From Parcubacteria group bacterium (GTDB taxonomy: Bacteria; Patescibacteriota; Minisyncoccia; Phycocordibacterales; 21-14-all-47-15), in contig JACOYO010000001.1 of NCBI GenBank assembly GCA_016181845.1, forward strand, positions 33,133 through 97,132: a DNA stretch of 64,000 bases, given 5' to 3'. The stretch's first letter is position 1, and the number at the start of each line of letters is the position of its first letter. The notes beneath the pieces were generated by a model. The model ran no database searches. It was not told where the DNA came from and saw only the letters and a list, made by a program, of their open reading frames with translations. Shown here piece by piece: positions 4,014-49,981 of this stretch. The position numbers and the translations under genes were made by a program.

Positions 4014-4390
4014 AAATTTACTTTGTCATTCATAAACGGTCCGTTTTTAATCTCAAAAATTTCCGAGTCTTCAAGCATCGTTATCGCGTGTCCGCCGGAA
4101 ACAAAAAGAAACGCCTCTCCGGCTTTTATGGGTACTGACGCCAGCCATTTTTTATTCGGAGTGTATAAATCGATTTTGACTTTACCTTTCCTGACAACCA
4201 AACACTCTTGGAGACTGGCGGTCGTTCTCTTTTTTGGAATGTGGGTATGCGGTTTTATTGAAACTCCCTTTTTATGCTTGAGGGTTAAAACCTGTAGGGC
4301 TTCAGAATCTCTGGTGATTGGGGTTACGTCCTGATTAAATTTTTGAATATGAATCCCTATGATTTCCTTTTTGTTTCTAAATACTTTCAT
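4010..4390 (-). CDS. Small cupin-fold protein (WbuC/FdtA-like), function unclear
   Basis: 126 aa; a His cluster (KPHTHIP) and beta-rich sequence typical of small cupins found in O-antigen loci. Overlaps neighbouring genes by 4 nt (operon). Confidence 0.35.
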   Translation of the reverse strand: MKVFRNKKEIIGIHIQKFNQDVTPITRDSEALQVLTLKHKKGVSIKPHTHIPKKRTTASLQECLVVRKGKVKIDLYTPNKKWLASVPIKAGEAFLFVSGGHAITMLEDSEIFEIKNGPFMNDKVNL

Positions 4391-4394
4391 GCGG

Positions 4395-5462
4395 CTAATC
4401 TATGCTAATACGTCTCCCTGGAGCAATCGAGGTGTGCAGTTCGGATTCTCGCTCGGCATGTTTTAAATCCGCTTCCGCCATCATTTGTGCCAATTTTTTA
4501 AAAGTAATTTTTGGTTTCCAACTCAAGACTTTCCGCGCTTTTCTTGGGTCTCCCAACAGTAAATCAACCTCGTTTGGTCTGAAATGTTTCGGGTCAATCT
4601 TGATAATAGTCTTGCCTGTTTTTCGGTCAACTCCCGTTTCTTTCAAGCCCCTGCCACGCCATACAATATCCATACCTAAATGATTCGCCGCCTCTTCGAC
4701 AAATTCCCGCACCGTGTGAGTCTCGCCGGTCGCAATCACGAAATCATCAGGCTTTTTGTGCTGTAAAATCTTCCATACAGCCTCCATATAATCTTTCGAG
4801 TATCCCCAGTCGCGTTTTGCATCAAGATTTCCAAGCATAAGCACCGGCTCAAGACCAAGCCTCACGCGCGACAAGCCAAGAGTGATTTTTCTTGTCACGA
4901 AATTAAATCCACGCCGCGGTGACTCGTGGTTAAAGAGAATCCCATTTGAAGCAAAGATGCCGTATCCATCACGAAAAATTTTTGTAATATGAAACGCAAA
5001 TACTTTTGAAAGCCCATACGGCGATTGAGGATTGAACTTGGTATTTTCATTTTGCGGAGTAGCGAGCACCTTGCCAAACATTTCAGAAGAGCTCGCCTGA
5101 TAGTATTTTGCCGGTAAATCAAAATTACGAATGGTTTCCAAAATGCGAAGTGGCCCGAGCGCATTCACATTCGCCGTATACTCCGGTTTATCAAAACTGA
5201 TTCGCACATGGCTTTGCGCCGCAAGGTTATAGATTTCATCCGGCTCTATTTTGTGAATAATACGGACCAAGTTAGAACTGTCAGATAAATCTCCGTATGC
5301 CATAAAAAGATTCGGGTCGGACAAATGGTCCAAGCGAATAGTATTCGGCATGCTTGAACGCCGCTGAATGCCATACACCTGGTATCCCTTCTCCAAAAGA
5401 AGCTCGGTCAAATATGAGCCGTCTTGTCCTGTTATGCCTGTGATTAATGCTTTTTTTGCCAT
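4395..5462 (-). CDS. gmd: GDP-mannose 4,6-dehydratase
   Basis: N-terminus ALITGITGQDGSYLTELLLEKGYQVYGI..RRSS and overall length ~355 aa match Gmd closely. Confidence 0.9.
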   Translation of the reverse strand: MAKKALITGITGQDGSYLTELLLEKGYQVYGIQRRSSMPNTIRLDHLSDPNLFMAYGDLSDSSNLVRIIHKIEPDEIYNLAAQSHVRISFDKPEYTANVNALGPLRILETIRNFDLPAKYYQASSSEMFGKVLATPQNENTKFNPQSPYGLSKVFAFHITKIFRDGYGIFASNGILFNHESPRRGFNFVTRKITLGLSRVRLGLEPVLMLGNLDAKRDWGYSKDYMEAVWKILQHKKPDDFVIATGETHTVREFVEEAANHLGMDIVWRGRGLKETGVDRKTGKTIIKIDPKHFRPNEVDLLLGDPRKARKVLSWKPKITFKKLAQMMAEADLKHAERESELHTSIAPGRRISID

Positions 5463-5495: not shown

Positions 5496-6044
5496 TCACT
5501 TGTTTTTAATGAAGGCAATAATATCCTTTGCGCCTTGCCGTATAGCGGAATGAAAATCGGAATGACTGACGTGCTCTGGAGATACCCATTGCAATGCAGC
5601 GTATTCGTCATTTGGCTTAAGCGCTGCCATTTCCTTATCGGTAATCGTTGCAGTCATTGTTATAGAAACCGTGTGTGAACCATTCTCAATCGGCTCTTGC
5701 GCCCTTTCTCCCCAGACCAAAGAGTACGTTCCGATATAAGACAGGCGCGACACTTCAATATCCAAACTAAGTTCTTCTTTTAATTTTCTAGAAGCCGCTT
5801 CTTCAAAACTTTCTCCCGGCATCATCCGCCCGCCGATAATCCACCAATCGGGCCATGGGGCTCTTGTTCTTTTTCCAAGCAATATTTCTCCGCGATTGTT
5901 GATAACCGCAATATCGGCAGTGGCAACCACCACACTATCAAGCACTTTTGCATACTCCTCAGCACTTAAAGACGCAGCATGACGATTAAACGCGCCAGTT
6001 ACAAAATGATGGTAATTCATTTTCATATGATAACATCTCCGCAT
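5496..6044 (-). CDS. NUDIX hydrolase (GDP-mannose mannosyl hydrolase-like)
   Basis: Nudix box GGRMMPGESFEEAASRKLKEELSL. Adjacent to gmd. Start overlaps the upstream stop codon. Confidence 0.7.
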   Translation of the reverse strand: MRRCYHMKMNYHHFVTGAFNRHAASLSAEEYAKVLDSVVVATADIAVINNRGEILLGKRTRAPWPDWWIIGGRMMPGESFEEAASRKLKEELSLDIEVSRLSYIGTYSLVWGERAQEPIENGSHTVSITMTATITDKEMAALKPNDEYAALQWVSPEHVSHSDFHSAIRQGAKDIIAFIKNK

Positions 6045-6850
6045 TAAACAAAGTCACTTTTGAGTAACCCGGTATCTGTTTCTTCCAATCTCCATCCGAC
6101 CGCTCCGCAAATTTCCTTCAAGTGTCCCGCGTTAGCGGTTTTTGGTATCACAACGATATCTTGGCTGATTAACCAATTGAGCGCTATTTGAATTGGCGTT
6201 TTTTGATATTTTTTACTCAAGGTATTGAGTATTTCTTTTTGCTCGAGCGCCAGCTTTCCTTTTGCAAGCGGGCGGTGCGCAATTACTTTTATATTATTCT
6301 CTTTGCAAAACGGAATAATTTCTTTCTCCGCCGAACGTTCGAGCAAGCTGTATTCGATTTGATTTGCCGCAAGAGTCGTCTTGCTCAAATACGATTGCGC
6401 CTCCTCCATAATCGGCACGGAAAAGTTGCTGACGCCGATATGGCGCACTTTTTTATTTGATACCAATTCCTCAAGCGCCCGCATAGTCTCCAGCAAAGGC
6501 GCCGCTTCGTTCGGCCAATGAATTAAATATAGATCAATATAATCGGTCTGTAACCGTTTCAGACTTTTCTCTGCCGCTGCCAAAACAGCATCATGGCGCA
6601 GATTGGTCTTCCAGACTTTTGTAATGAGAAAAATATCTTCTCTGTTGTGTCCTTTTATGGCTTGCCCTACTATCTCCTCGGTCAACCCTTCCCCATACAA
6701 TTCTGCCGTATCAATAAGCCTTATGCCGAGAGCAAGTCCTTGTTTCAAAATAGAAATTGATTGTTCGATATTGCTTTCGTCTCTTTCATATTTTCCGCCC
6801 ATGCCCCACGTACCCATGCCAAGCGCCGGAATGTTCATTTCTTTACCCAT
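6044..6850 (-). CDS. Aldo-keto reductase
   Basis: LGMGTWGMG ... IDTAELYG ... LITKVW motifs typical of aldo-keto reductases. Confidence 0.8.
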   Translation of the reverse strand: MGKEMNIPALGMGTWGMGGKYERDESNIEQSISILKQGLALGIRLIDTAELYGEGLTEEIVGQAIKGHNREDIFLITKVWKTNLRHDAVLAAAEKSLKRLQTDYIDLYLIHWPNEAAPLLETMRALEELVSNKKVRHIGVSNFSVPIMEEAQSYLSKTTLAANQIEYSLLERSAEKEIIPFCKENNIKVIAHRPLAKGKLALEQKEILNTLSKKYQKTPIQIALNWLISQDIVVIPKTANAGHLKEICGAVGWRLEETDTGLLKSDFV

Positions 6851-6855
6851 GTTTC

Positions 6856-8094
6856 TTATACAATGATTACTGCAGGCGTTGGTATGATAAATTTCCCCTT
6901 ATATCCGGCACCCCTTATTTTCGGAATCAATTCATCTGCAATGTTCCAGGAAAGGAGGAGCGCGTATTCCGGTTGGTCAACAAATAAACGGCTTTCCGGC
7001 ACGACGGGGATGCGTGTGCCGGGCGCAAAAAGACCGATTTTTAATGGGCTTTTTTCAACCAAATAATCAACGAGGCCAGGATTTGATGCGCAAAAATTGA
7101 GAAGCGTATTGCCTTTTGCCGGCGCGCCGATACCGACAACCCGCTTCCCCATACCCCGCTGTTCGGAAATGAATTTTTGAATGGAAATTTTATTTTGATT
7201 TGCCTTTTCGGCAAAATCGGCATATGTTTCTTTTTTATACAACCCCGCCGCTTCTTCTTTGTTGATAAGATGTTCAACAGTATCAAGCACTTTATGAGCC
7301 CCCTTTTTTGCTGCATAGATGCGGATTGAGCCGCCATGGGTAGAAATTTTTTCCGCATCAAACATTTCCAGCCCGTGAGCCGCAAACAACATCTTGAGCG
7401 GTTTCAATGAATAATACCGCAAGTGCTCATGATACACGGCGTCATATTGCAGTTTGGTAATCATATCGAGCAAATACCCCGATTCCGATACAAACACTCC
7501 ATCCTGAGTAAGCAGTTCCGCAACGCCGGCCAAAAAATCATTCAGTTTATTAACATGAGCAAAAACATTCGTTGCAGTTATTATTTTCGCATTGCCGTAT
7601 TTTTTCTCCACTTGCATAGCCACTGTCTTGGAAAAAAAATCAACGAGAGTCGGTATGTTATTTTTCAAAGCCAATTGAGCCGAGCTTGACGGGTCAATTC
7701 CTAAAATTTTCACACCGTACGGCACATAATTCGATAAAAGTGTCCCGTCGTTTGAACCGATATCAATTGCAAAATCGGTATTTTTTAATTGGAAACGCTC
7801 TATCAAGGTCTCAACGAGATTGTAAAAATTAACCTTGAGACTGTTGTTGGTCGCAGTATTGTATACATAATCCACAAACAATTTTTCCGGCGGAACAATA
7901 TGGTTTAGCTGAACCAAACCGCATGTCTCGCAAAAACAAAGTTCAAGCGGATATGTCGCTTCCGGTTTGCAAAGGTCTTCTGATTTCAAAAAAGCATCGC
8001 TTGGCGGCTGGTGCCCCAAATCAAGGAAATTAAAGAAGGTTGTGTTGTCGCAAATAAAACAATGCATGCCATTACTTATCAAATCGATAGACAA
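6856..8094 (-). CDS. SAM-dependent C-methyltransferase (TylCIII/NovU-like; N-terminal Zn-binding domain, C-terminal C-methyltransferase domain)
   Basis: N-terminal C-x2-C ... C-x2-C (CFICDN ... CFCETCG). Central DIGSNDG SAM-binding motif. ~410 aa architecture of NDP-hexose C-methyltransferases. Confidence 0.7.
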   Translation of the reverse strand: MSIDLISNGMHCFICDNTTFFNFLDLGHQPPSDAFLKSEDLCKPEATYPLELCFCETCGLVQLNHIVPPEKLFVDYVYNTATNNSLKVNFYNLVETLIERFQLKNTDFAIDIGSNDGTLLSNYVPYGVKILGIDPSSSAQLALKNNIPTLVDFFSKTVAMQVEKKYGNAKIITATNVFAHVNKLNDFLAGVAELLTQDGVFVSESGYLLDMITKLQYDAVYHEHLRYYSLKPLKMLFAAHGLEMFDAEKISTHGGSIRIYAAKKGAHKVLDTVEHLINKEEAAGLYKKETYADFAEKANQNKISIQKFISEQRGMGKRVVGIGAPAKGNTLLNFCASNPGLVDYLVEKSPLKIGLFAPGTRIPVVPESRLFVDQPEYALLLSWNIADELIPKIRGAGYKGKFIIPTPAVIIV

Positions 8095-22976: not shown

Positions 22977-22993
22977 AAATAAGTAATGACGAA

Positions 22994-23132
22994 TTATGAA
23001 ATAGTATTTTTAGCAGAGCCTTGCGGACCCCGACAGTTATCGTCGTGGGAGCAGAGCATCCGCCCTGGGCGGAAGCATCCGCCCTGGGCGGAATGCGTGC
23101 TGTGCGAGAAATACTATTTCGTAATTTATAGT
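22994..23132. repeat. MITE-like intergenic repeat element, divergent copy E4, containing a 19-bp tandem duplication
   Basis: GAAATAGTATTTTTAGCAGAGCCTTGCGGA aligns with the E1-E3 5' module. (GCATCCGCCCTGGGCGGAA)x2 at 23056-23093 matches the E3 hairpin. Ends with the family terminus TTTCGTAATTTATAG. Confidence 0.6.
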
Positions 23133-23141
23133 AATAAAATA

Positions 23142-24506
23142 TTAACTAAACAAATGTCCTATTCGTTCCCGAATCCTATCAAGATTTCTTAGCGCGTCAA
23201 ATAAGGTATTGCTGAAAAGAAGCAGTGTAACAAGAGCCAAGACTTTCAATTCCCTGCGACCGCGCCATAAATCAAACAACCCATAACTGGCAAATATCGC
23301 AAAAAACGGATACACAAGAAATCGATACCTCGTTTCCACAATGATACCAATAATAGCGATGGGCATCATCACAAGCATCCAGAGTAACATTTTTGCGCGT
23401 TCTTTTTCATCCGCGGAAAGCTCTTTCATACGATAGATGCCCCAAAAACCGAAAATAAAAAGAATGGCGGAGTAAACCGCAGACAATGTAAGTGTTAAGG
23501 CCTTGCTCATTCCTTCCAGATGAAACCAAAATCCGGTCGGGCGAGCGAAACTAAAATAAATGGAAATTCGCTTAAAAGTAATTTCCAAAAATTCTATCGG
23601 ACGAGAGAAAATAAAGCCAAGCGATTCTTTGAGCGCGAGCTTATTCCCTTCTATCCTTCCCTCTTTCATAAATATTTCATTACCCTCGTACGGCTCAAGT
23701 TCGCCAGAGGCACCAGGATGATTTCCGGCAAGCAAATCATACCCAAACGCAAGGTTGGTCGGGATAAAGGTGTGATACATGCGATAATTGCGGACCGTCC
23801 ACGGAGTAAAGACAAGCGTAAGTACGATAAGAAACACGCCTAGTTCTTTCCAAAATTTTTGCCAGATAAAATAGCCCGCCAGCGGAAAGATTAAAAAAAG
23901 CGCCGGAGTGCGCACCAAGACCGCAAAACCAAATACCACGGCCAACAACATCAACAACCATATTGATGCATTGGCATTTCTTTCGATATATCGAAAGAAA
24001 ATATATACGCTTAAAATAATAAAAAATATCCCGAGTGTCTCTGTCATGAGCATGCCGTTTATCGTAATTAAATCGGGAGAAAAGCCGATAAGCCCAGCGG
24101 CAACGAGCCCGATTGGCAAGCTCCAATGTTCTTTGAATATTTGTTTGCTGATAAGAAAAATAAAAAACGCAGAAAATGCCGACAAAAGCGCATTAATAAT
24201 CCACACGACTTGATAGTGATGCCCGAACAAATAATAAACGCCAGCCAAAAAAAATTCATAACCGGGTCCGACGCGCAAAATGGCCAAATCTTCATCGTAT
24301 GAAAGATCCGCCTGCTCTTTATATCCGTTCCCCTGCACAAGATTCCATGCAATGTTGTCATATGCTCGCGCGTCAACCGCAGGTGCAATGTAAAAATAAA
24401 GAGAGTACGCATAGGCAACCAGAAAAATACCGAGAACGAGAAGGCCGATTATTTTTTTCTCCATATCGTCTTGATACAAACGAGAGAACATATTCTGCAA
24501 GGACAT
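23142..24506 (-). CDS. GT-C-family membrane glycosyltransferase (PMT/ArnT-like, GT39/GT83-type)
   Basis: ~13 transmembrane helices. N-terminal loop motif DARAYDNIAWNLVQGNGY resembles the first extracytoplasmic loop of PMT/ArnT enzymes. Sits next to a DPM1-like GT2. Confidence 0.55.
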   Translation of the reverse strand: MSLQNMFSRLYQDDMEKKIIGLLVLGIFLVAYAYSLYFYIAPAVDARAYDNIAWNLVQGNGYKEQADLSYDEDLAILRVGPGYEFFLAGVYYLFGHHYQVVWIINALLSAFSAFFIFLISKQIFKEHWSLPIGLVAAGLIGFSPDLITINGMLMTETLGIFFIILSVYIFFRYIERNANASIWLLMLLAVVFGFAVLVRTPALFLIFPLAGYFIWQKFWKELGVFLIVLTLVFTPWTVRNYRMYHTFIPTNLAFGYDLLAGNHPGASGELEPYEGNEIFMKEGRIEGNKLALKESLGFIFSRPIEFLEITFKRISIYFSFARPTGFWFHLEGMSKALTLTLSAVYSAILFIFGFWGIYRMKELSADEKERAKMLLWMLVMMPIAIIGIIVETRYRFLVYPFFAIFASYGLFDLWRGRRELKVLALVTLLLFSNTLFDALRNLDRIRERIGHLFS

Positions 24507-28511: not shown

Positions 28512-29561
28512 TCATTTTTCTCTATTGAGAAGGTCGGTCATTTTTTTTATGACAGAGACGCCGCTGTGGTTTTGTATCACCAGAGACTGAAGCTCGCGGA
28601 GTTCATATTTTGAGGCCGTCTTGATTTCTAATATTTTTTGGACAATATAATCTGCGTTGGTATTCCGCAAAAGATGTTTTTCTGGCAACATTGCAAAAAA
28701 AGCTTCGTTTGAAGTGAGCACGTTAACCCCTGACGCCATCGCTTCAAGGACCGCCTTATCAAGACTTCCGGTTTCGCTCAAATTGATAAAGAGATCGCTT
28801 TTTTGATAAAAGGAGTGGATATCGGAATACGAAACCGCGCCAACAAAAAACACGCTGTCATCTATCCCCTTCGCTTGTATCTCTTTTTTTAATCGAATGA
28901 AATAGTCATAATCCGCATTTGTAATCGGCGCCCCGACAATTTTCATTTCAAAAGAAACGCCTTCTTTTTTCAAAAGTTCTGCCGCTTCAAGCATCATGTG
29001 AATATTTTTTGCCGGCGTAATTCTACTGACAGAAAGAATATTCAATTTTTCGTGCGGCCACTTGTCCACCGGATGAAAACGCTCCGTATCAATCCCATGT
29101 CCTACTACATGCACCTTGTCGCTTTTCAAACGAAAACTTTCTTTTGAGGCGGTAAAGATAATATCGGATAATTTTTCCGCGACGCGCAATTTCATATCAA
29201 CCTGTTTGTGCGTATACCATAGCGCAATTTTTTTAGACAAAAGTTTCCAAAACACACCTCCGAGCAAAATATATATCGGATTCATGTGCACGAAGACCGT
29301 ATCGTAATTTTTTTTCTCATTCCAGATATATCTATAAAACCTTGCGATATATCGAAAGGTTTTTATTACAGTGGCACCAGCAAATTCTTCTTTGCCGAGC
29401 GATAATACGGAAACATTCTGCGGCAAATGGTATTTGCCTTTTTGCAAACAAATAACCGTAACTTTTTCAGCATGCTTGGCAAATTCTTCAATCCACCGGA
29501 CAAAAAAACCGAGGTTGTCGTCCTGTTCGTCCACTTTTTGAGTTATGATAAGCAGTCGCAT
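28512..29561 (-). CDS. Glycosyltransferase family 1 (GT4); contains the 28-bp palindrome, copy A, in frame
   Basis: C-terminal GT-B domain (GSLDKAVLEAMASGVNVL); ~349 aa. The palindrome encodes KTFRYIARFY. Confidence 0.8.
   Translation of the reverse strand: MRLLIITQKVDEQDDNLGFFVRWIEEFAKHAEKVTVICLQKGKYHLPQNVSVLSLGKEEFAGATVIKTFRYIARFYRYIWNEKKNYDTVFVHMNPIYILLGGVFWKLLSKKIALWYTHKQVDMKLRVAEKLSDIIFTASKESFRLKSDKVHVVGHGIDTERFHPVDKWPHEKLNILSVSRITPAKNIHMMLEAAELLKKEGVSFEMKIVGAPITNADYDYFIRLKKEIQAKGIDDSVFFVGAVSYSDIHSFYQKSDLFINLSETGSLDKAVLEAMASGVNVLTSNEAFFAMLPEKHLLRNTNADYIVQKILEIKTASKYELRELQSLVIQNHSGVSVIKKMTDLLNREK
29334..29366. repeat. 28-bp near-perfect palindrome AAAACCTTGCGATATATCGAAAGGTTTT (copy A), inside the GT4 CDS
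   Basis: Same palindrome at 42936-42966 and 49363-49393. Confidence 0.85.
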
Positions 29562-29567
29562 AAAAAA

Positions 29568-30677
29568 TTACAAATAAATAGCGCATGACTCCCACTGTTT
29601 TTTATATACCCGAAGATACTCTTCTTTTGAAATTTCATTTGATGCGCGTGTGAATCGCCCGCCGCTTGAAAGAGCCGCTGACAACGAGTCCGCGAGGCAG
29701 ATGGAATTGCCGACAGAGCATATAAAAACACCATCTCCTGAAACGACATCTCCCGCAATCCCCACATCAGTGGTTACTATGGGCAACCCTGCCCTATACG
29801 CCTCCACAAGCGAGAGCCCGTATCCTTCATAAAATGATGTGTGAAGATACACGTCGGCGGCGGCATAATAAGATGCAATTTCTTTTTGAGAGCCGACAAA
29901 TATAGCGCTGTCTTCCAATTTGAGATTTGAGATTTGGGACTTGAGATTTTTTCTCTCGCTTCCGTCACCAACAACAAGAAGCCCAGCTTTGGGATATGTT
30001 TTAATAATTTTTTCAAACACCTCAATCGCACGGGCAACATTTTTTTCCGGCTCAAGTCGCGAGACAACAAGAACGATTTTTTCAAACTGTGGAAACTCTG
30101 CGCGGACACGGCTGCCGTCCGCATTTTTGAATTTTTGAACATCGGTGAAAATCGGCAGTACGGCAATCGGCGCATTGGTGAATCCACTGATAGATTTTTT
30201 AATTCGCTCCGACACCACGCGGACACAATCGGCTTTGGGCAATAAAAATTTCGCAACCATCACCCGAATTTTATTTTTGATATTTTCCGCGGCAAAATAG
30301 TGGCTCATGAAATCGGTATGTACCTGCAGCTCAAGCCGCGCGCCAAGAGCGCGCGAGACGCGCCATCCGGCAAAACCGGTTTCAAACGGGTTTTGGCAAG
30401 TAACCAGGAAATCATGAGTCATGAATAATGAATCATGATTGATGCGCTTCGCGATTTTGTATGCGTCAAAAATATACAGCCAGCGGCTCAAAGAATTTGT
30501 GGAATAAATGAAAACATTGTCTGAAATCTTGATTCTTGATTCTTGATTCTTGATTCTTGCGCGGAAAATTATAATATGCAATTCTTCACACAATCTTCCA
30601 TACTCAATCATCCTCGCGCGCACCGCCGAGTCTTTTTCAAAAATTTTTGAATCAGTTGATAGCATTAGTACTCTCAT
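29568..30677 (-). CDS. Glycosyltransferase family 1 (GT4), paralogue 1 of a tandem pair, with two heptanucleotide tracts
   Basis: GT-B C-terminal domain (YGLSLVEAYRAGLPIVTT). Shares the peptide ERKNLKSQISNLKLE with the next gene. Confidence 0.8.
   Translation of the reverse strand: MRVLMLSTDSKIFEKDSAVRARMIEYGRLCEELHIIIFRARIKNQESRIKISDNVFIYSTNSLSRWLYIFDAYKIAKRINHDSLFMTHDFLVTCQNPFETGFAGWRVSRALGARLELQVHTDFMSHYFAAENIKNKIRVMVAKFLLPKADCVRVVSERIKKSISGFTNAPIAVLPIFTDVQKFKNADGSRVRAEFPQFEKIVLVVSRLEPEKNVARAIEVFEKIIKTYPKAGLLVVGDGSERKNLKSQISNLKLEDSAIFVGSQKEIASYYAAADVYLHTSFYEGYGLSLVEAYRAGLPIVTTDVGIAGDVVSGDGVFICSVGNSICLADSLSAALSSGGRFTRASNEISKEEYLRVYKKQWESCAIYL
29918..29952. repeat. Heptanucleotide repeat (GAGATTT)n, interrupted (gagattt gagattt gggactt gagattt), in GT4 paralogue 1
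   Basis: Coding strand AAATCTC units encode ..KSQISNLK.. in frame. One unit is degenerated by synonymous changes. Confidence 0.8.
30528..30560. repeat. Heptanucleotide repeat (TCTTGAT)x4.7 in GT4 paralogue 1
   Basis: Four perfect units plus a partial unit. Coding strand (AGAATCA)n encodes RIKNQESRIKIS. Confidence 0.85.
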
Positions 30678-31837
30678 AGTTGTTTAAAAAATTGAGTTAA
30701 ATTCTCAAGCATTTTTTCTTTTGAAAATCCCGCCGCTTTTTCACGCGCCGATTTTTCAAAACGCTGGCGCGCCACTGTCACATCCGCCAGTATTTCAATG
30801 ATTGCTTCTGCAAGAGCTTTTTTATCTTGATGCGTCACCAACCGCCCTGAAACGCTGTCTTCAATCAATTCAGAATTTCCGCCTACACGGGTCGTAACCA
30901 CGGGCACTCCCAAAGCCATCGCCTCAAGAATAGTGTGCGACAACCCTTCGTATCCGGTATTTAGCACGAATACATCCGCCACCATTAAATAAAGCATAGT
31001 GTCGTCGTGCGACAATTGCCCGATTAAGAATACGCTATTCTCCAATTTGAGATTTGAGATTTGAGATTTGAGATTCTTTCTTTCCGGCCCATCTCCGATA
31101 ATGTAGAGTTTTGCCTGCGGATATTTTTTTACTATTTCAGAAAACATTTCTATTAATGTTTCAAATCCTTTCCACGAAACAAGCCGCCCGATAGACACTA
31201 GTATCTCTCCTGGCCAGTCCCGCCCTTCAACGCGAGCCGGGGCGGACAAAAGAAGTCTCGCGCGAGCTTCATCGTGAGTGATATTTTGTTTCGGTAATTC
31301 AAACGCGTTATAGATAACTTCTACTTTTTCTGGAGCAACCCCCCATCCGTACACAATAATTTTTTTCAAATATTCGCTCGGCACAACTATCTTGTCCGCA
31401 TAGCGCGCCACATATTTTTGTATAGACCTACGCATTTCAATCCCAAGAGAATATTTTTTTCCCTGAAATTCATCCAACAAATCATATTCCTGATTTCTGA
31501 TTCCTGATTCCTGATTCACATATTCTTCCCACGCGCGGTCTCCTACAATTTTTACCACAAATTTTTTACCAAGTATTTTGGCGGCGCACAATGCGGGCAA
31601 GCCGACACCGAGCGGGTCTTGCGCGAAAATAATACCCGCCTCGGCTCCAGCGCGAAGCAGTTTGAAAAAATAAAAAAGATGTTTTACGCCAAAAGGCCAT
31701 TTTTTTACATCGCTCAATTTCACCACGGCAACCTGAAACCCACGGAGCGAGAGCTCGCGTTCCAAAAGAGCGGTGTATGTGGCCGGTCCGCCGATTTCGG
31801 GCGGATAGAGCGGTGTAGCAATAAGTATTTTTTGCAT
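30674..31837 (-). CDS. Glycosyltransferase family 1 (GT4), paralogue 2 of the tandem pair, with two heptanucleotide tracts
   Basis: GT-B C-terminal domain (YEGLSHTILEAMALGVPVVTT). Start taken at MQKILIATPLYPPEIGG; the ORF track extends to 31870 through a palindromic site. Confidence 0.8.
   Translation of the reverse strand: MQKILIATPLYPPEIGGPATYTALLERELSLRGFQVAVVKLSDVKKWPFGVKHLFYFFKLLRAGAEAGIIFAQDPLGVGLPALCAAKILGKKFVVKIVGDRAWEEYVNQESGIRNQEYDLLDEFQGKKYSLGIEMRRSIQKYVARYADKIVVPSEYLKKIIVYGWGVAPEKVEVIYNAFELPKQNITHDEARARLLLSAPARVEGRDWPGEILVSIGRLVSWKGFETLIEMFSEIVKKYPQAKLYIIGDGPERKNLKSQISNLKLENSVFLIGQLSHDDTMLYLMVADVFVLNTGYEGLSHTILEAMALGVPVVTTRVGGNSELIEDSVSGRLVTHQDKKALAEAIIEILADVTVARQRFEKSAREKAAGFSKEKMLENLTQFFKQL
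31049..31076. repeat. Heptanucleotide repeat (GAGATTT)x3 plus GAGATTC in GT4 paralogue 2
   Basis: Four tandem units. Coding strand (AAATCTC)n encodes NLKSQISNLK in frame. Confidence 0.85.
31489..31516. repeat. Heptanucleotide repeat (CCTGATT)x4, one imperfect, in GT4 paralogue 2
   Basis: Reads cctgatt tctgatt cctgatt cctgatt. Coding strand (GAATCAG)n encodes NQESGIRNQE. Confidence 0.8.
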
Positions 31838-31846
31838 AAGTTTATA

Positions 31847-31869
31847 TGTTGGACATCGGATGTCCAACA
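31847..31869. promoter_or_regulatory. 23-bp perfect palindrome TGTTGGACATC-G-GATGTCCAACA, ~10 nt upstream of the GT4 paralogue 2 start codon
   Basis: Perfect dyad symmetry. Positioned over the expected RBS / 5'UTR. Confidence 0.5.
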
Positions 31870-31902
31870 ATATCGTATGTTTTACTTAACCATCTTCAAC
31901 TT

Positions 31903-31937
31903 CCAAACTGTTGGACATCCGATGTCCAACAGTTTGG
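31903..31937. promoter_or_regulatory. 35-bp perfect palindrome CCAAACTGTTGGACATC-C-GATGTCCAACAGTTTGG, second copy of the same dyad core
   Basis: Shares the core TGTTGGACATC N GATGTCCAACA with the site 34 bp downstream. Abuts the E2 repeat. Confidence 0.5.
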
Positions 31938-32168
31938 AAGAAACTCGCTCTCTATCATAGTTTTTGAGAGACATTGCGGAGCCCACAGGCGAGCATAGCA
32001 AATCCTGCTCGCAAGCAGGTTCTGAAGCGAATATTTGAAGCTTCAGAAAACCTTTTGAGAATTTTTGCAAGTTTTGCGAAGTAAAAAATCCAAAAGGTGT
32101 ACTAATCCTGTAAGGATTATGCGCGTCTATCAAAAACTCATGATGAGGAAGAGTTTCGTAATTCATAG
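31938..32168. repeat. MITE-like intergenic repeat element, copy E2 (longest copy, ~230 bp)
   Basis: 5' module CTATCATAGTTTTTGAGAGACATTGCGGAGCCCACAGGCGAGCATAGCA. Hairpin AATCCTGCT-cgca-AGCAGGTT. About 100 bp of extra internal hairpins. 3' module ATGCGCGTCTATCAAAAACTCATGATGAGGAAGAGTTTCGTAATTCATAG. The 94-aa ORF 31882-32166 within it is treated as spurious. Confidence 0.7.
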
Positions 32169-33371
32169 TAAAGCAAACATTCGCTCAAAAACTTTTTCTT
32201 TCATTTGTTTAGCTATTATGTTCCAATCATATTTTTCTAGAACCATAGCCCGAGCATTCGCACTAATTTTTTCTTTCAATGCTTTATCTTCCATAAGCCG
32301 CTTCACTTGCACGGCAACGCTTTCTGGGTTATCCACCTCGCAAAAAAGCCCCGTCCCTTCGTCTTTCAAAAAGTCGGTAATGCCGCCAACTGGAGTACCA
32401 ATCACCGGCAACCCAGCCGCCATCGCTTCAATAAATGAGTTCCCCATGCCTTCTGAACGTGACGGGCGTACAAAAATATCAGCGATACTTAAATAACGAG
32501 GCACTTCGGCGCTATCCACCGATTTTATAAAAACGATTCGCTCCGACACGTGCTCTCTTTGAGCAAGCGCACGAAGGAACGCTTCATCCGGCCCTGCCCC
32601 CACAACAAGAAATTTCACATGTGAAGGCAAAAACGCGAGTGAGCGAATGACATCATCAACAGCGTTCTTGTGTACCAGGCGCGACGTGGTGATAAGCAAT
32701 ATATCATAACTAGAAAATCCGAGGGTGGCGCGCGCGTTCTGTCTCTCTTCTTTTGAAACATTTTGAGAAAATAGCGCCACATCAACGCCGTTTGGGATAA
32801 CTTCAGTGTGGCTTCTATACTTCATTGTCTTTTTTGCGAATACTTCAATCAAAAATGTGGAGATACCCTGAATGATGTCGGCTCGGTCAAAAATTTCTTG
32901 AAACCACCCACGCGCAAAACGCACGCGCCGCAAAATATGTGCTATCGGGTCACCCTCCTGCAAAGCCAGCACAAATGGCACATGAGGAAACTTCTTTTTG
33001 AAAAAAAGAGCGGCAAATCCGGCGTAATTTGCCATGATAGACCACACGGCATCATACGGATTCTCCCGATGCAGTTTTTTTGCGTATAGCGCCGCCAAAA
33101 AAGGAAATAAATATTTATTGATAGACAGAGGAAACCGAATTACCATATCTTTTACGGAACCTTTTTTTAATTCCGTAAATCCGATTCGGTGGACATTCAC
33201 GTTTCCAATTCTTTCATACCGCGGCAAATCAGAACTCAACCGGAGCGTGATCATATCAAACAGAAAATCCGGAAGCCGGTCCGTAATATTTCGCACCGCG
33301 ACTTCCGCTCCGCCCACAAACGGCTCGTACATGAGAGAAAATATTAAAATTCTTTTTTTATTTTTTTCCAT
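32163..33371 (-). CDS. Glycosyltransferase family 1 (GT4)
   Basis: GT-B C-terminal motif SRSEGMGNSFIEAMAAGLPVIGT; ~400 aa. Confidence 0.8.
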   Translation of the reverse strand: MEKNKKRILIFSLMYEPFVGGAEVAVRNITDRLPDFLFDMITLRLSSDLPRYERIGNVNVHRIGFTELKKGSVKDMVIRFPLSINKYLFPFLAALYAKKLHRENPYDAVWSIMANYAGFAALFFKKKFPHVPFVLALQEGDPIAHILRRVRFARGWFQEIFDRADIIQGISTFLIEVFAKKTMKYRSHTEVIPNGVDVALFSQNVSKEERQNARATLGFSSYDILLITTSRLVHKNAVDDVIRSLAFLPSHVKFLVVGAGPDEAFLRALAQREHVSERIVFIKSVDSAEVPRYLSIADIFVRPSRSEGMGNSFIEAMAAGLPVIGTPVGGITDFLKDEGTGLFCEVDNPESVAVQVKRLMEDKALKEKISANARAMVLEKYDWNIIAKQMKEKVFERMFALL

Positions 33372-39182: not shown

Positions 39183-39234
39183 TATCTCTATAGTATCGTA
39201 ATAGACCGATAAGAGCGAGCGGTTAATGTGTTTG

Positions 39235-39362
39235 AATTACGAAACTCGCCCTGAATCATAGTTTTTGAGAGACATTGCGGAGCCCACAGGCAAGCATAGC
39301 ATCCGCCCTGGGCGGAATGCGTGTCTTTCAAAAACCAACGATGAAGCAGAGAAATACAACCG
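39235..39362. repeat. MITE-like intergenic repeat element, copy E3
   Basis: GAATTACGAAACTCGCCCTGAATCATAGTTTTTGAGAGACATTGCGGAGCCCACAGG 5' module. GC-rich hairpin CATCCGCCC-tgg-GCGGAATG. 3' module ATGCGTGTCTTTCAAAAAC..ATGAAGCAGAG. The 94-aa ORF 39188-39472 is treated as spurious. Confidence 0.7.
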
Positions 39363-42935: not shown

Positions 42936-42966
42936 TAAAAACCTTTCGATATATCGAAAGGTTTTA
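42936..42966. repeat. 28-bp perfect palindrome AAAACCTTTCGATATATCGAAAGGTTTT (copy B), intergenic
   Basis: Perfect dyad. Copies at 29334-29366 and 49363-49393 differ only by T to G at one position. Confidence 0.85.
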
Positions 42967-49192: not shown

Positions 49193-49981
49193 ATGCAAGA
49201 AAAGAGAAGGGAAAAGAAAAAAATGCGGTGGAGAAAACAAAAACGCCAAGCCAGCTCTTTTTGGGAAAAAGAATATAAGAGCGGCGAGCATTTGGCTCTC
49301 TCGACAAGCGCGAGCGAAGACCTGCAAAAATTCACGCGGTGGCTTTCGCGCGAAAATGATAATAAAACCTTGCGATATATCGAAAGGTTTTTACCAGTAA
49401 ATAAATACTCGACGACAAAAGCATCCGTTGCTGATTTAGGCACCGGCAATGGGAGAAATCTTATATACCTTGCAGAAACGTTCGGCATGAAAGGCACTGG
49501 ATTTGATATTTCCCGCGAGGCGATTGAACAGGCAAAAATCGCGAGCAAAAACAAAAATTTGCCGCTTGAATTTTTCGTGCGCTCAATCGCGGAGCCAATT
49601 CCACTGCCCGATAATTCACAAGACATCGTCCTTGATATGATGACCTCGCATTTTTTAAACAACTCCGAGCGAGCGATCCTCCTTTCCGAAATCGCGCGCA
49701 TTTTGAAACCGGGCGGCTTTCTTTTTTTCAAAACATTTCTTCTTGATGAGGATATTCACGCGGCGCGTCTTTTGCGCGAGCACCCAGCGGGAGAACCGGG
49801 CTCATACATTCACCCTGAAATCGGCAAAGCCGAGCATGTATTCACCGAAAATGAAATCGTTGCTCTCTTTTCTCACTATTTCACGATACGAAAAATTACC
49901 AAATCGCACCGCCACAAAATCAAAGGACATGCCGCCAAACGCAGAAGCATTTCCGTATACGCAGAAAAAGAAATCCGTTAA
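49193..49981 (+). CDS. Class I SAM-dependent methyltransferase; contains the 28-bp palindrome, copy C, in frame
   Basis: ADLGTGNGRNLIYLAE motif I, ILKPGGFLFFKTF. Start uncertain (Lys/Arg-rich N-terminus). The palindrome encodes KTLRYIERFL. Confidence 0.65.
   Translation: MQEKRREKKKMRWRKQKRQASSFWEKEYKSGEHLALSTSASEDLQKFTRWLSRENDNKTLRYIERFLPVNKYSTTKASVADLGTGNGRNLIYLAETFGMKGTGFDISREAIEQAKIASKNKNLPLEFFVRSIAEPIPLPDNSQDIVLDMMTSHFLNNSERAILLSEIARILKPGGFLFFKTFLLDEDIHAARLLREHPAGEPGSYIHPEIGKAEHVFTENEIVALFSHYFTIRKITKSHRHKIKGHAAKRRSISVYAEKEIR
49363..49393. repeat. 28-bp near-perfect palindrome AAAACCTTGCGATATATCGAAAGGTTTT (copy C), inside the methyltransferase CDS
   Basis: Identical to copy A. Flanking sequence is unrelated. 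Confidence 0.85.

Follow-up and report, generated by a model that had tools for sequence, protein, structure and literature searches.

Two perfect palindromes at a glycosyltransferase gene pair of a Parcubacteria group bacterium are probably copies of a Patescibacteria-wide REP-like hairpin

Introduction

Repetitive extragenic palindromic (REP) sequences and their partner, the REP-associated tyrosine transposase (RAYT), form an architecture known as the REPtron, which has been described in Proteobacteria (PMC3116915, PMC3479197, PMC5581495). The RAYT is present in a single copy per genome and is inherited vertically (PMC5581495), groups of REPs that are perfect palindromes are known (PMC8266576), and one end of a REP carries a GTAG or CGTC tetranucleotide that stays unpaired (PMC3733652). 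REPs that lie inside repair and replication genes have been published as well, as have the Rickettsia palindromic elements (RPEs), and a modulating effect on expression has been proposed for REP arrays that flank exopolysaccharide genes (PMC3733652). Here we examine two perfect palindromes, Pal1 and Pal2, which lie between two glycosyltransferase (GT4) genes in a 64,000-nt stretch of DNA (hereafter the window) of a Parcubacteria group bacterium (assembly GCA_016181845.1, contig JACOYO010000001.1, positions 33,133 to 97,132). This organism belongs to the Patescibacteria, whose genomes are tiny and generally regarded as repeat-poor.

An initial annotation of the window had interpreted the two palindromes as a dedicated control point for putatively phase-variable GT4 genes, acting either as a tandem operator pair for a dimeric repressor or as stable hairpins in the 5' untranslated region (5'UTR) of the mRNA. 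Our analysis favors a different explanation. With a probability of roughly 0.8, Pal1 and Pal2 are copies of a REP-like mobile hairpin that is found throughout the Patescibacteria and, in other genomes, has a RAYT/TnpA_REP-type Y1/HUH transposase as its partner; they are part of a 332-bp insertion and, on this explanation, not a dedicated control site.

Results

Structure and distribution of the palindrome core

Pal1 and Pal2 share a 21-nt core, which in Pal1 reads GTTGGACATC-G-GATGTCCAAC (31848-31868) and in Pal2 (31910-31930) is its exact reverse complement, centre base included (G vs C). The existence of this common core was thus confirmed in the sequence, as was the length of 23 bp reported for Pal1, but the 35 bp reported for Pal2 fell short of the actual perfect palindrome of 41 bp, in which the core is extended by a locus-specific 10-bp outer stem (CTTCCAAACT / AGTTTGGAAG). 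The centres of the two dyads are 62 bp apart. Chance does not explain the two palindromes: the window contains 11 perfect palindromes with arms of at least 10 bp, Pal2 being the longest, against 0.35 in shuffled sequences, and the 11-mer half-site occurs four times exactly against 0.77 expected (an expectation that allows for up to one mismatch). No further copies of the palindromes were found in the window, even with up to four mismatches allowed.

The core was traced with an exact-pattern scan (GTTGGACATCNGATGTCCAAC), which misses variant cores, of one genome per bacterial and archaeal species (596 Gb). This yielded 30 loci, against a chance expectation of ~0.5 matches (20 specified bases in 596 Gb), and all of them belong to Patescibacteria, including Saccharibacteria, Paceibacterota, Kaiserbacteria, Yanofskybacteria, Minisyncoccia, and others. 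The corresponding scan of metagenomes gave at least 80 loci, and the core is identical in at least 110 loci besides the window. A phage origin was rejected, since the scanned viral contigs gave no match to the core. In the representative genomes, 1-10 exact cores occur per metagenome-assembled genome (MAG), several MAGs having 4-10 copies. An identical 21-nt core in dozens of Patescibacteria contexts that have nothing to do with one another, coding sequences included, is at odds with the idea of a control point dedicated to the GT4 genes.

The central base of the core is G in 49, C in 40 and A in one of the sites, and the flank consensus is AAMT|core|AKTT. The complementarity between the left and right flanks amounts to 0.92, 0.83, 0.82, 0.63, 0.61, 0.47, 0.37, and 0.41 at positions 1-8 and to ~0.25 beyond. 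None of 1000 permutations, in which left and right flanks of different sites were paired, reached the values observed at positions 1-6 and 8, although these covariation statistics are inflated because sites within one genome are related. Since the flanks vary from locus to locus and yet stay complementary within a locus, the unit is a hairpin with a conserved apex and a lower stem that is specific to each locus, and the 10-bp extension of Pal2 fits this description.

In some loci the element has been amplified locally. In L059 (6420-6560) a 69-bp unit containing the core is duplicated in tandem, and in L104 (~450-534), L107 (1469-1510), and L005 (120-165) partial half-site repeats (GATGTCCAACAGTTGTT, three times) or nested partial copies lie beside full copies. 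Another family of palindromes in the window has the core TTTCGATATATCGAAA (AAAACCTTKCGATATATCGAAAGGTTTT) and is found at 23977-24000, 42938-42965, 29334-29365, and 49362-49393; two of its copies are located inside long open reading frames (ORFs), i.e., a glycosyltransferase gene (28512-29561, minus strand) and the ORF at 49193-49981 (plus strand). Related ACGATATATCGT palindromes occur near the REP-like core in L026 and L028.

The Y1 transposase associated with the core

The sole recurrent neighbor of the core that was seen is the gene of a REP-type Y1 transposase, and not that of a helix-turn-helix regulator. A Y1_Tnp gene with a product of ~215 aa directly adjoins the core in 16 of the 111 loci, as judged by tblastn with one of the neighboring ORFs, and in four of them (L023, L039, L104, and L107) the core is present on both sides of the gene, at a spacing of 690-750 bp. 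The 5' palindrome lies ~15-25 nt before the start of the transposase (up to ~70 nt in L104) and is often followed by a TATAAT-like box, and the 3' palindrome lies at the stop codon or right after it. The association also appears when it is approached from the protein: three homologues chosen by protein search alone (P0200, P0139, and P0193; loci L114, L115, and L118) are all flanked by palindromes on both sides. These palindromes share a CATC-S-GATG apex; one of the three homologues has the exact core, and beside the other two (L114 and L118) the stems are compensated variants (CAGTCATC-S-GATGACTG and GTTAGGACATC-S-GATGTCCTAAC). More compensated variants of the palindrome were encountered beside other members of the family. 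The transposase gene is not consistently oriented relative to the C or G at the centre, and the centre base was discarded as a marker of orientation.

The RAYT-like protein matches Pfam family PF01797 (Y1_Tnp, IS200-like) with 33-39 bits against a cut-off of 23, and its HUH motif (H69, H71) and the tyrosine (Tyr129) in YIHLNP are invariant in 44 sequences. Its AlphaFold model (pLDDT 87.8) has as its top Foldseek match in the PDB 4ER8_A (E 1.5e-4, probability 1.00, TM 0.60 on the target), which is the E. coli TnpA_REP (RAYT) bound to a REP hairpin; the next-best fold matches are the TnpA proteins of IS608 and ISDra2 (2VJV, 2XMA). Searches of the PDB by sequence or profile gave marginal ISDra2 matches only. 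More than 7000 homologous proteins were found at E <1e-10, and where their lineage is named it is Patescibacteria or Kaiserbacteria, the others being listed just as "bacterium." Many of the RAYT-like genes are on short contigs (1-2 kb), which is what flanking repeats would lead one to expect. In L118 (2850-3000 and 3655-3800; also in L119) the REPtron is bracketed by a diverged direct repeat of ~70 nt (ggtacgaaatcgagttcttt..cggcgaggcgggcggcggt...gtcgccgag), and the flanking sequence in L118 appears to have been duplicated on arrival of the REPtron.

Copies inside genes

Almost a third of the distinct sites (29 of 94; ~30%) fall within an open frame that continues for 60 codons or more to either side. 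All but one (L011) of the 20 host ORFs scanned match Pfam families, and these are mostly housekeeping genes: leucyl-tRNA synthetase (LeuRS; six), an isoleucyl-tRNA synthetase (IleRS)-like gene, a class II aminoacyl-tRNA synthetase, UvrA (L046), UvrB, RecG, DNA polymerase III delta' (HolB; L004), TsaD (L067), a Mur ligase (L071), an HhH-GPD glycosylase (L091), and methyltransferases. All frames through the core are open, and they read VGH[P/R]MSN, LDI[R/G]CP, or WTSDVQ. In comparison with solved structures, the UvrB of L027 (2380-2450) has an in-frame insertion of 18 aa (SEGHPMSRPEVGHRMSNY) exactly at the palindrome, consisting of a partial and a full palindrome copy in tandem, and the RecG of L029 (1780-1950) has an insertion of ~30 residues that contains VGHPMSN. 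Both insertions speak for mobility of the element.

The LeuRS genes are a special case. In five of them (L085, L045, L034, L025, and L055), encoding proteins that are 40-66% identical, the identical 21-nt core is found at one and the same site, namely after the ...GAEIDF motif and before VFTTRPD, where the editing domain begins. Two frames are used there (IVGHPMSNIR vs NCWTSDVQQSE) and the flanking codons have diverged; nucleotide conservation at this site is far above protein conservation. In the LeuRS of L056 (3396-6842), the core (4366-4386) overlaps the CPxCG zinc motif, and KWLDIRCPTCGG aligns gap-free to WVNTACPTCGG, which looks like a native half-site turned palindromic and not like an insertion. 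The LeuRS ORFs of L056, L085, L034, L025, and L055 contain extra inserted domains, with a NUDIX domain after the editing domain; that of L056 also has an alpha/beta-hydrolase domain, and the IleRS-like ORF of L064 has a histidine-phosphatase domain.

The insertion between the GT4 genes

In the window, Pal1 and Pal2 lie in an all-minus-strand neighborhood with a glycosyltransferase cluster that, according to Pfam, comprises the two GT4 genes, two further group-1 (GT4-type) genes, and one GT2 gene (Table 1). In the direction of the mRNA, the upstream GT4 gene ends with its stop codon and is followed by a repeat resembling a miniature inverted-repeat transposable element (MITE), Pal2, the 30-nt spacer, Pal1, UAUAAACUU, and the AUG of the downstream GT4 gene. 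Pal1 ends 9 nt before this start codon (31837-31835), in good agreement with the ~10 nt given initially, and the reported adjacency of Pal2 to the MITE-like copy E2 was likewise borne out.

Table 1. Positions of Pal1, Pal2, and the features around them in the window.
Feature	Position	Strand	Description	Sequence
Pal1	31847-31869		perfect 23-bp palindrome, probable REP-like hairpin copy	TGTTGGACATC-G-GATGTCCAACA
Spacer between Pal1 and Pal2	31870-31899		30 nt; gap of 39 nt between the shared 23-bp cores	
Pal2	31900-31940		perfect 41-bp palindrome, 20-bp arms, centre C at 31920	CTTCCAAACTGTTGGACATC-C-GATGTCCAACAGTTTGGAAG
MITE-like repeat copy E2	31941-32165		genome-specific element with terminal inverted repeats	GAATTACRAAACTC...GAGTTTYGTAATTC (terminal inverted repeats of the element as a whole)
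Inserted block	31830-32161	minus	332 nt: MITE-like repeat, Pal2, spacer, Pal1, and ATG-carrying tail	TATAAACTTATGC (tail)
Downstream GT4 gene (paralogue 2)	30674-31837	minus	Pfam Glycos_transf_1 and Glyco_transf_4	
Upstream GT4 gene	32163-33371	minus	GT4 glycosyltransferase according to Pfam; stop codon overlaps the downstream start in relatives	

The closest relative found (L112; Ca. Lloydbacteria JACROG010000039.1), with a GT4 that is 88% identical, has the same gene order, but its GT4 genes overlap by ATGA. Pairwise alignment with this locus leaves a single clean gap of 332 nt between ...ACTATGAA and AATACTT..., with boundaries that are ambiguous by ~7 nt, as ATGAA / ATGCAA is repeated at both junctions. 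In L121 (GT4 68% identical) the GT4 genes overlap by ATGA as well, and since this is shared with L112 the overlap is the ancestral state. The 332-nt block is thus an insertion relative to two relatives. The repeated ATGAA / ATGCAA might represent a decayed target-site duplication. The N-terminus of the downstream GT4 reads MQKILI here, as opposed to MKILI in the relatives, and the context of the start codon was, therefore, remade by the insertion. None of the loci fetched from relatives (L112, L113, L121, L122, and L123) contains the core, and the contigs of L112 and L121 are free of the palindrome.

The MITE-like copy E2 has no sequence relationship to the palindrome family; next to Pal2 its terminal 7 nt (GAATTAC) are missing, and it has an extra internal segment of ~90 nt. 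Other copies of this repeat are located at ~405-545 and ~39233-39350, with a related sequence at 22990-23126, and among the fetched loci BLAST gave matches only in the window and in L001, which is from the same organism. This Logan contig is broken at both ends within the MITE-like repeat (1-40 and 7111-7164). Two proposals for the fine structure of the insertion were abandoned: Pal1 does not interrupt a CATACGATAT|ATCGTATG palindrome, since the right flank is mismatched, and the spacer as a remnant of a deleted RAYT gene (ATG GTT AAG TAA) was dropped as too short to test.

The GT4 genes carry heptanucleotide repeats (AATCTCA on the coding strand) at 30527-30554, 31045-31072, and 31497-31517 of the window, and their orthologues in L112 do so at 4463-4490, 4925-4952, 6021-6048, and 6896-6916, mostly with four units and at one site with three. 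These repeats are conserved, and no length variation is visible between the two genomes.

Discussion

A REP-like hairpin with a RAYT-like partner

On the model of E. coli TnpA_REP and the transposases of IS200/IS605, the Y1 enzyme would recognize the hairpin when folded on single-stranded DNA and would cut and rejoin the DNA beside it, thereby scattering solo hairpins through the genome. At the locus studied here, the 332-bp repetitive block has come to lie precisely at the ATGA where the stop and start codons of the two GT4 genes overlapped, the genes having been translationally coupled before. The downstream gene would thus have become uncoupled and would now start, 9 nt past a stable hairpin, at an ATG at the insertion's margin, and its expression would depend on read-through or on a promoter made by the insertion. 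Pal1, ending at -10, could hinder initiation, and Pal2 could act as a 3' stabilizer of the upstream message. Any such regulatory effect on the GT4 genes would be a by-product of the insertion and not the reason why the palindromes exist.

Several observations weigh against this explanation. No RAYT-like gene is present in the 64-kb window. The only NCBIfam match of the RAYT-like proteins is REP_Tyr_transpos (NF047646), at 36-48 bits and thus under the cut-off of 80 of this curated equivalog model; they are distant relatives. GTAG and CGTC tags were found in just 6 and 2 of 180 flanks, respectively, i.e., at or below random expectation. The copy number is low (two in 64 kb and 1-10 exact cores per MAG) compared to the tens to thousands of classical REPs. 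Transposition of members of the family is presumed by analogy, and Pal1, Pal2, and the MITE-like repeat may have come together in one event or in several. Finally, RAYT-like proteins of different classes share only 42-79% identity, yet their core is the same throughout, and this constancy, together with the conserved site in LeuRS, is more in keeping with selection on the sequence than with a repeat that is purely selfish and decays. This pattern of conservation could reflect either selection on the hairpin or continuing re-insertion or homogenization by the enzyme.

The first of these options leads to a second explanation, in which the hairpin and its RAYT-like partner form a domesticated, phylum-wide system and the core itself is under selection, e.g., as an element that controls replication, recombination, or expression and on which the Y1 enzyme acts. 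It is suggested by the identity of the core across classes, its retention in divergent LeuRS genes, and its recurrence in repair and replication genes and at gene junctions, but we regard it as unlikely. If true, it would mean that the hairpin has rewired the expression of a cell-surface glycosylation operon in the window.

Folding and signals at the RNA level

It also seems rather improbable that the hairpins have been co-opted as cis-acting RNA elements, with Pal1 limiting initiation at an AUG without a Shine-Dalgarno (SD) sequence, and with Pal2 or a joint Pal1:Pal2 hairpin blocking 3' exonucleases on the upstream GT4 message or forming an RNase III-type processing site. The thermodynamics are in its favor. 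As RNA, Pal2 folds with -29.4 kcal/mol and Pal1 with -12.8 kcal/mol (as DNA, -20.5 and -9.3 kcal/mol, respectively), and since their cores are mutually complementary the two could pair into a single long, REPIN-like hairpin, for which the joint RNA fold is -47.5 kcal/mol against -42.2 kcal/mol for the separate hairpins. The z-score of the entire intergenic RNA is -10.6. The short distance of 9 nt between Pal1 and the AUG would suit such a role too. REPs in E. coli stabilize upstream mRNA and can affect translation. The expression-modulating role suggested for REP arrays at exopolysaccharide genes (PMC3733652) offers a further parallel. However, the arrangement is missing in the two closest relatives, and hence there is no conserved regulatory design; the same core occurs in many unrelated contexts, within coding sequences as well; and the stems of Pal1 and Pal2 are entirely Watson-Crick, free of G-U pairs, which points to constraint or generation at the level of DNA. 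Of the initial suggestion of stable 5'UTR hairpins, the folding of both palindromes into stable hairpins was upheld, but a purpose-built 5'UTR switch was not. With read-through transcription from the upstream gene, the 5' part of the GT4 mRNA would include both hairpins.

Other RNA-level candidates were rejected. The terminator scan reports neither palindrome as an intrinsic terminator, and the stems are not followed by a T-run (UUGAAGAUGG and UAUAAACUUAUG follow on the mRNA strand). The promoter scan gives only TGGACA-16-TAAACT within Pal1, from which transcription would begin inside the coding sequence. A known RNA family was dismissed as well: Rfam 15 has no match in the window at gathering thresholds, the sub-threshold matches over 31846-31934 are all to eukaryotic microRNA-precursor models, i.e., generic hairpins, and a further weak match, to PK-repBA (16 bits), lies in the MITE-like repeat. 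The absence of an SD sequence before GT4 paralogue 2, which had been put forward as a peculiarity of this site, is real but hardly distinctive, as GGAG, GAGG, or AGGA precedes only 7 of the 49 long ORFs in the window. Many genes in the window have a TATAAT-like box just 3-10 nt 5' of the ATG, and this sequence pattern suggests that leaderless mRNAs or mRNAs with a very short leader are widespread in the source organism.

Operator or inverton

The proposal of a tandem operator pair, through which a dimeric repressor would control the GT4 genes within a regulon, is highly improbable. Two perfect dyads with a shared core, 62 bp apart, are what such a pair might look like, and the 5' palindrome of the REPtron lies just before a TATAAT-like box, where protein binding could in principle repress a promoter. 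Nevertheless, the search for other copies of the core, by which a regulon was to be defined, led to dozens of unrelated contexts in which no class of genes is consistently downstream except the Y1 transposase, and the core often follows stop codons or lies within genes. The motif is missing at the orthologous loci, L112 and L121 having no intergenic region at all. The nearby helix-turn-helix regulator that was to be looked for was not found with Pfam among the nine neighboring genes, and a perfect palindrome with 20-bp arms, the outer parts of which are locus-specific, is not of the kind that an operator requires.

A very small inverton, in which the palindromes would be inverted repeats that flip a 39-bp segment to phase-vary the GT4 genes, is scarcely credible: the cores of Pal1 and Pal2 are exact reverse complements, centre base included, on either side of 39 bp, and the downstream genes carry heptanucleotide repeats, but each arm is itself palindromic, so that orientation is set by the centre base alone, without a fixed orientation in the family, Pfam reveals no recombinase among the neighboring genes, the promoter scan gives no convincing promoter in the spacer, and all known invertible segments are, to our knowledge, far longer.

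Implications

The REP-like hairpin explanation removes a false lead, in that the palindromes mark neither a regulon nor a designed switch for the putatively phase-variable glycosyltransferases. The insertion of repetitive DNA at the GT4 pair is recent and would have uncoupled the two genes. More generally, a hairpin core that is conserved phylum-wide and often lies in frame within essential genes raises the question how such elements persist in streamlined genomes and whether the Y1 enzyme has been domesticated. It may also be asked whether these hairpins are a cause of the frequent contig breaks and the odd protein insertions in MAGs of the Candidate Phyla Radiation (CPR). None of the literature in the library searched links RAYT or REP with CPR/Patescibacteria, the 10 listed of 118 matches to the bare sequence being unrelated, and a REP/RAYT-type system in Patescibacteria appears to be previously undescribed.

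Comparison with known systems

A resemblance to integron attC sites was set aside as coincidental. GTTGGAC and GTCCAAC do fit GTTRRRY and RYYYAAC, respectively, but the two boxes come in the opposite order, copies are also located within genes, and there is no integrase in the vicinity. The IS200/IS605 elements (IS608, ISDra2) resemble the present system in having a Y1 HUH transposase that recognizes subterminal hairpins on single-stranded DNA. They differ from it in that the flanking hairpins here are the same perfect palindrome rather than one type of hairpin at the left end and another at the right, solo hairpins are far more numerous than the gene, tnpB is absent, and there is one gene copy per MAG among the fetched loci.

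A further parallel is provided by the intragenic REPs and RPEs, which are likewise palindromic in-frame insertions in housekeeping genes, notably those of repair and replication. The hosts are UvrA, UvrB, RecG, HolB, and LeuRS here and include uvrA, uvrB, recBCD, polA, and dnaE in the literature (PMC3733652). The element described here is, however, shorter (about 21-45 bp) than RPE-1, its core is free of stop codons in its frames, and one site in LeuRS is occupied in five genes in two frames.

The greatest similarity is to the REP/REPIN and RAYT systems (PMC3116915, PMC3479197, PMC5581495, PMC8266576). There are clear differences: REPs are as a rule species-specific but the core here does not differ between classes, the copy number is very low, the GTAG/CGTC tag is absent, and the protein is longer (~215 aa, with a C-terminal extension of ~80 aa) and falls under the NCBIfam cut-off for RAYTs. 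The features in common are nonetheless those of the architecture itself. Short palindromes that form a stem-loop (20-40 bp in REPs, 23 bp in Pal1, and 41 bp in Pal2) are scattered, and the same palindrome is found at both ends of a Y1/HUH gene in other genomes (L023, L039, L104, L107, L114, L115, and L118). Pairs of copies can fold into a larger hairpin, the best match of the protein fold is 4ER8, with the HUH motif and the tyrosine conserved, and palindrome and transposase co-vary between lineages, as REP and RAYT do, which is reflected here in the variant stems of L114 and L118.

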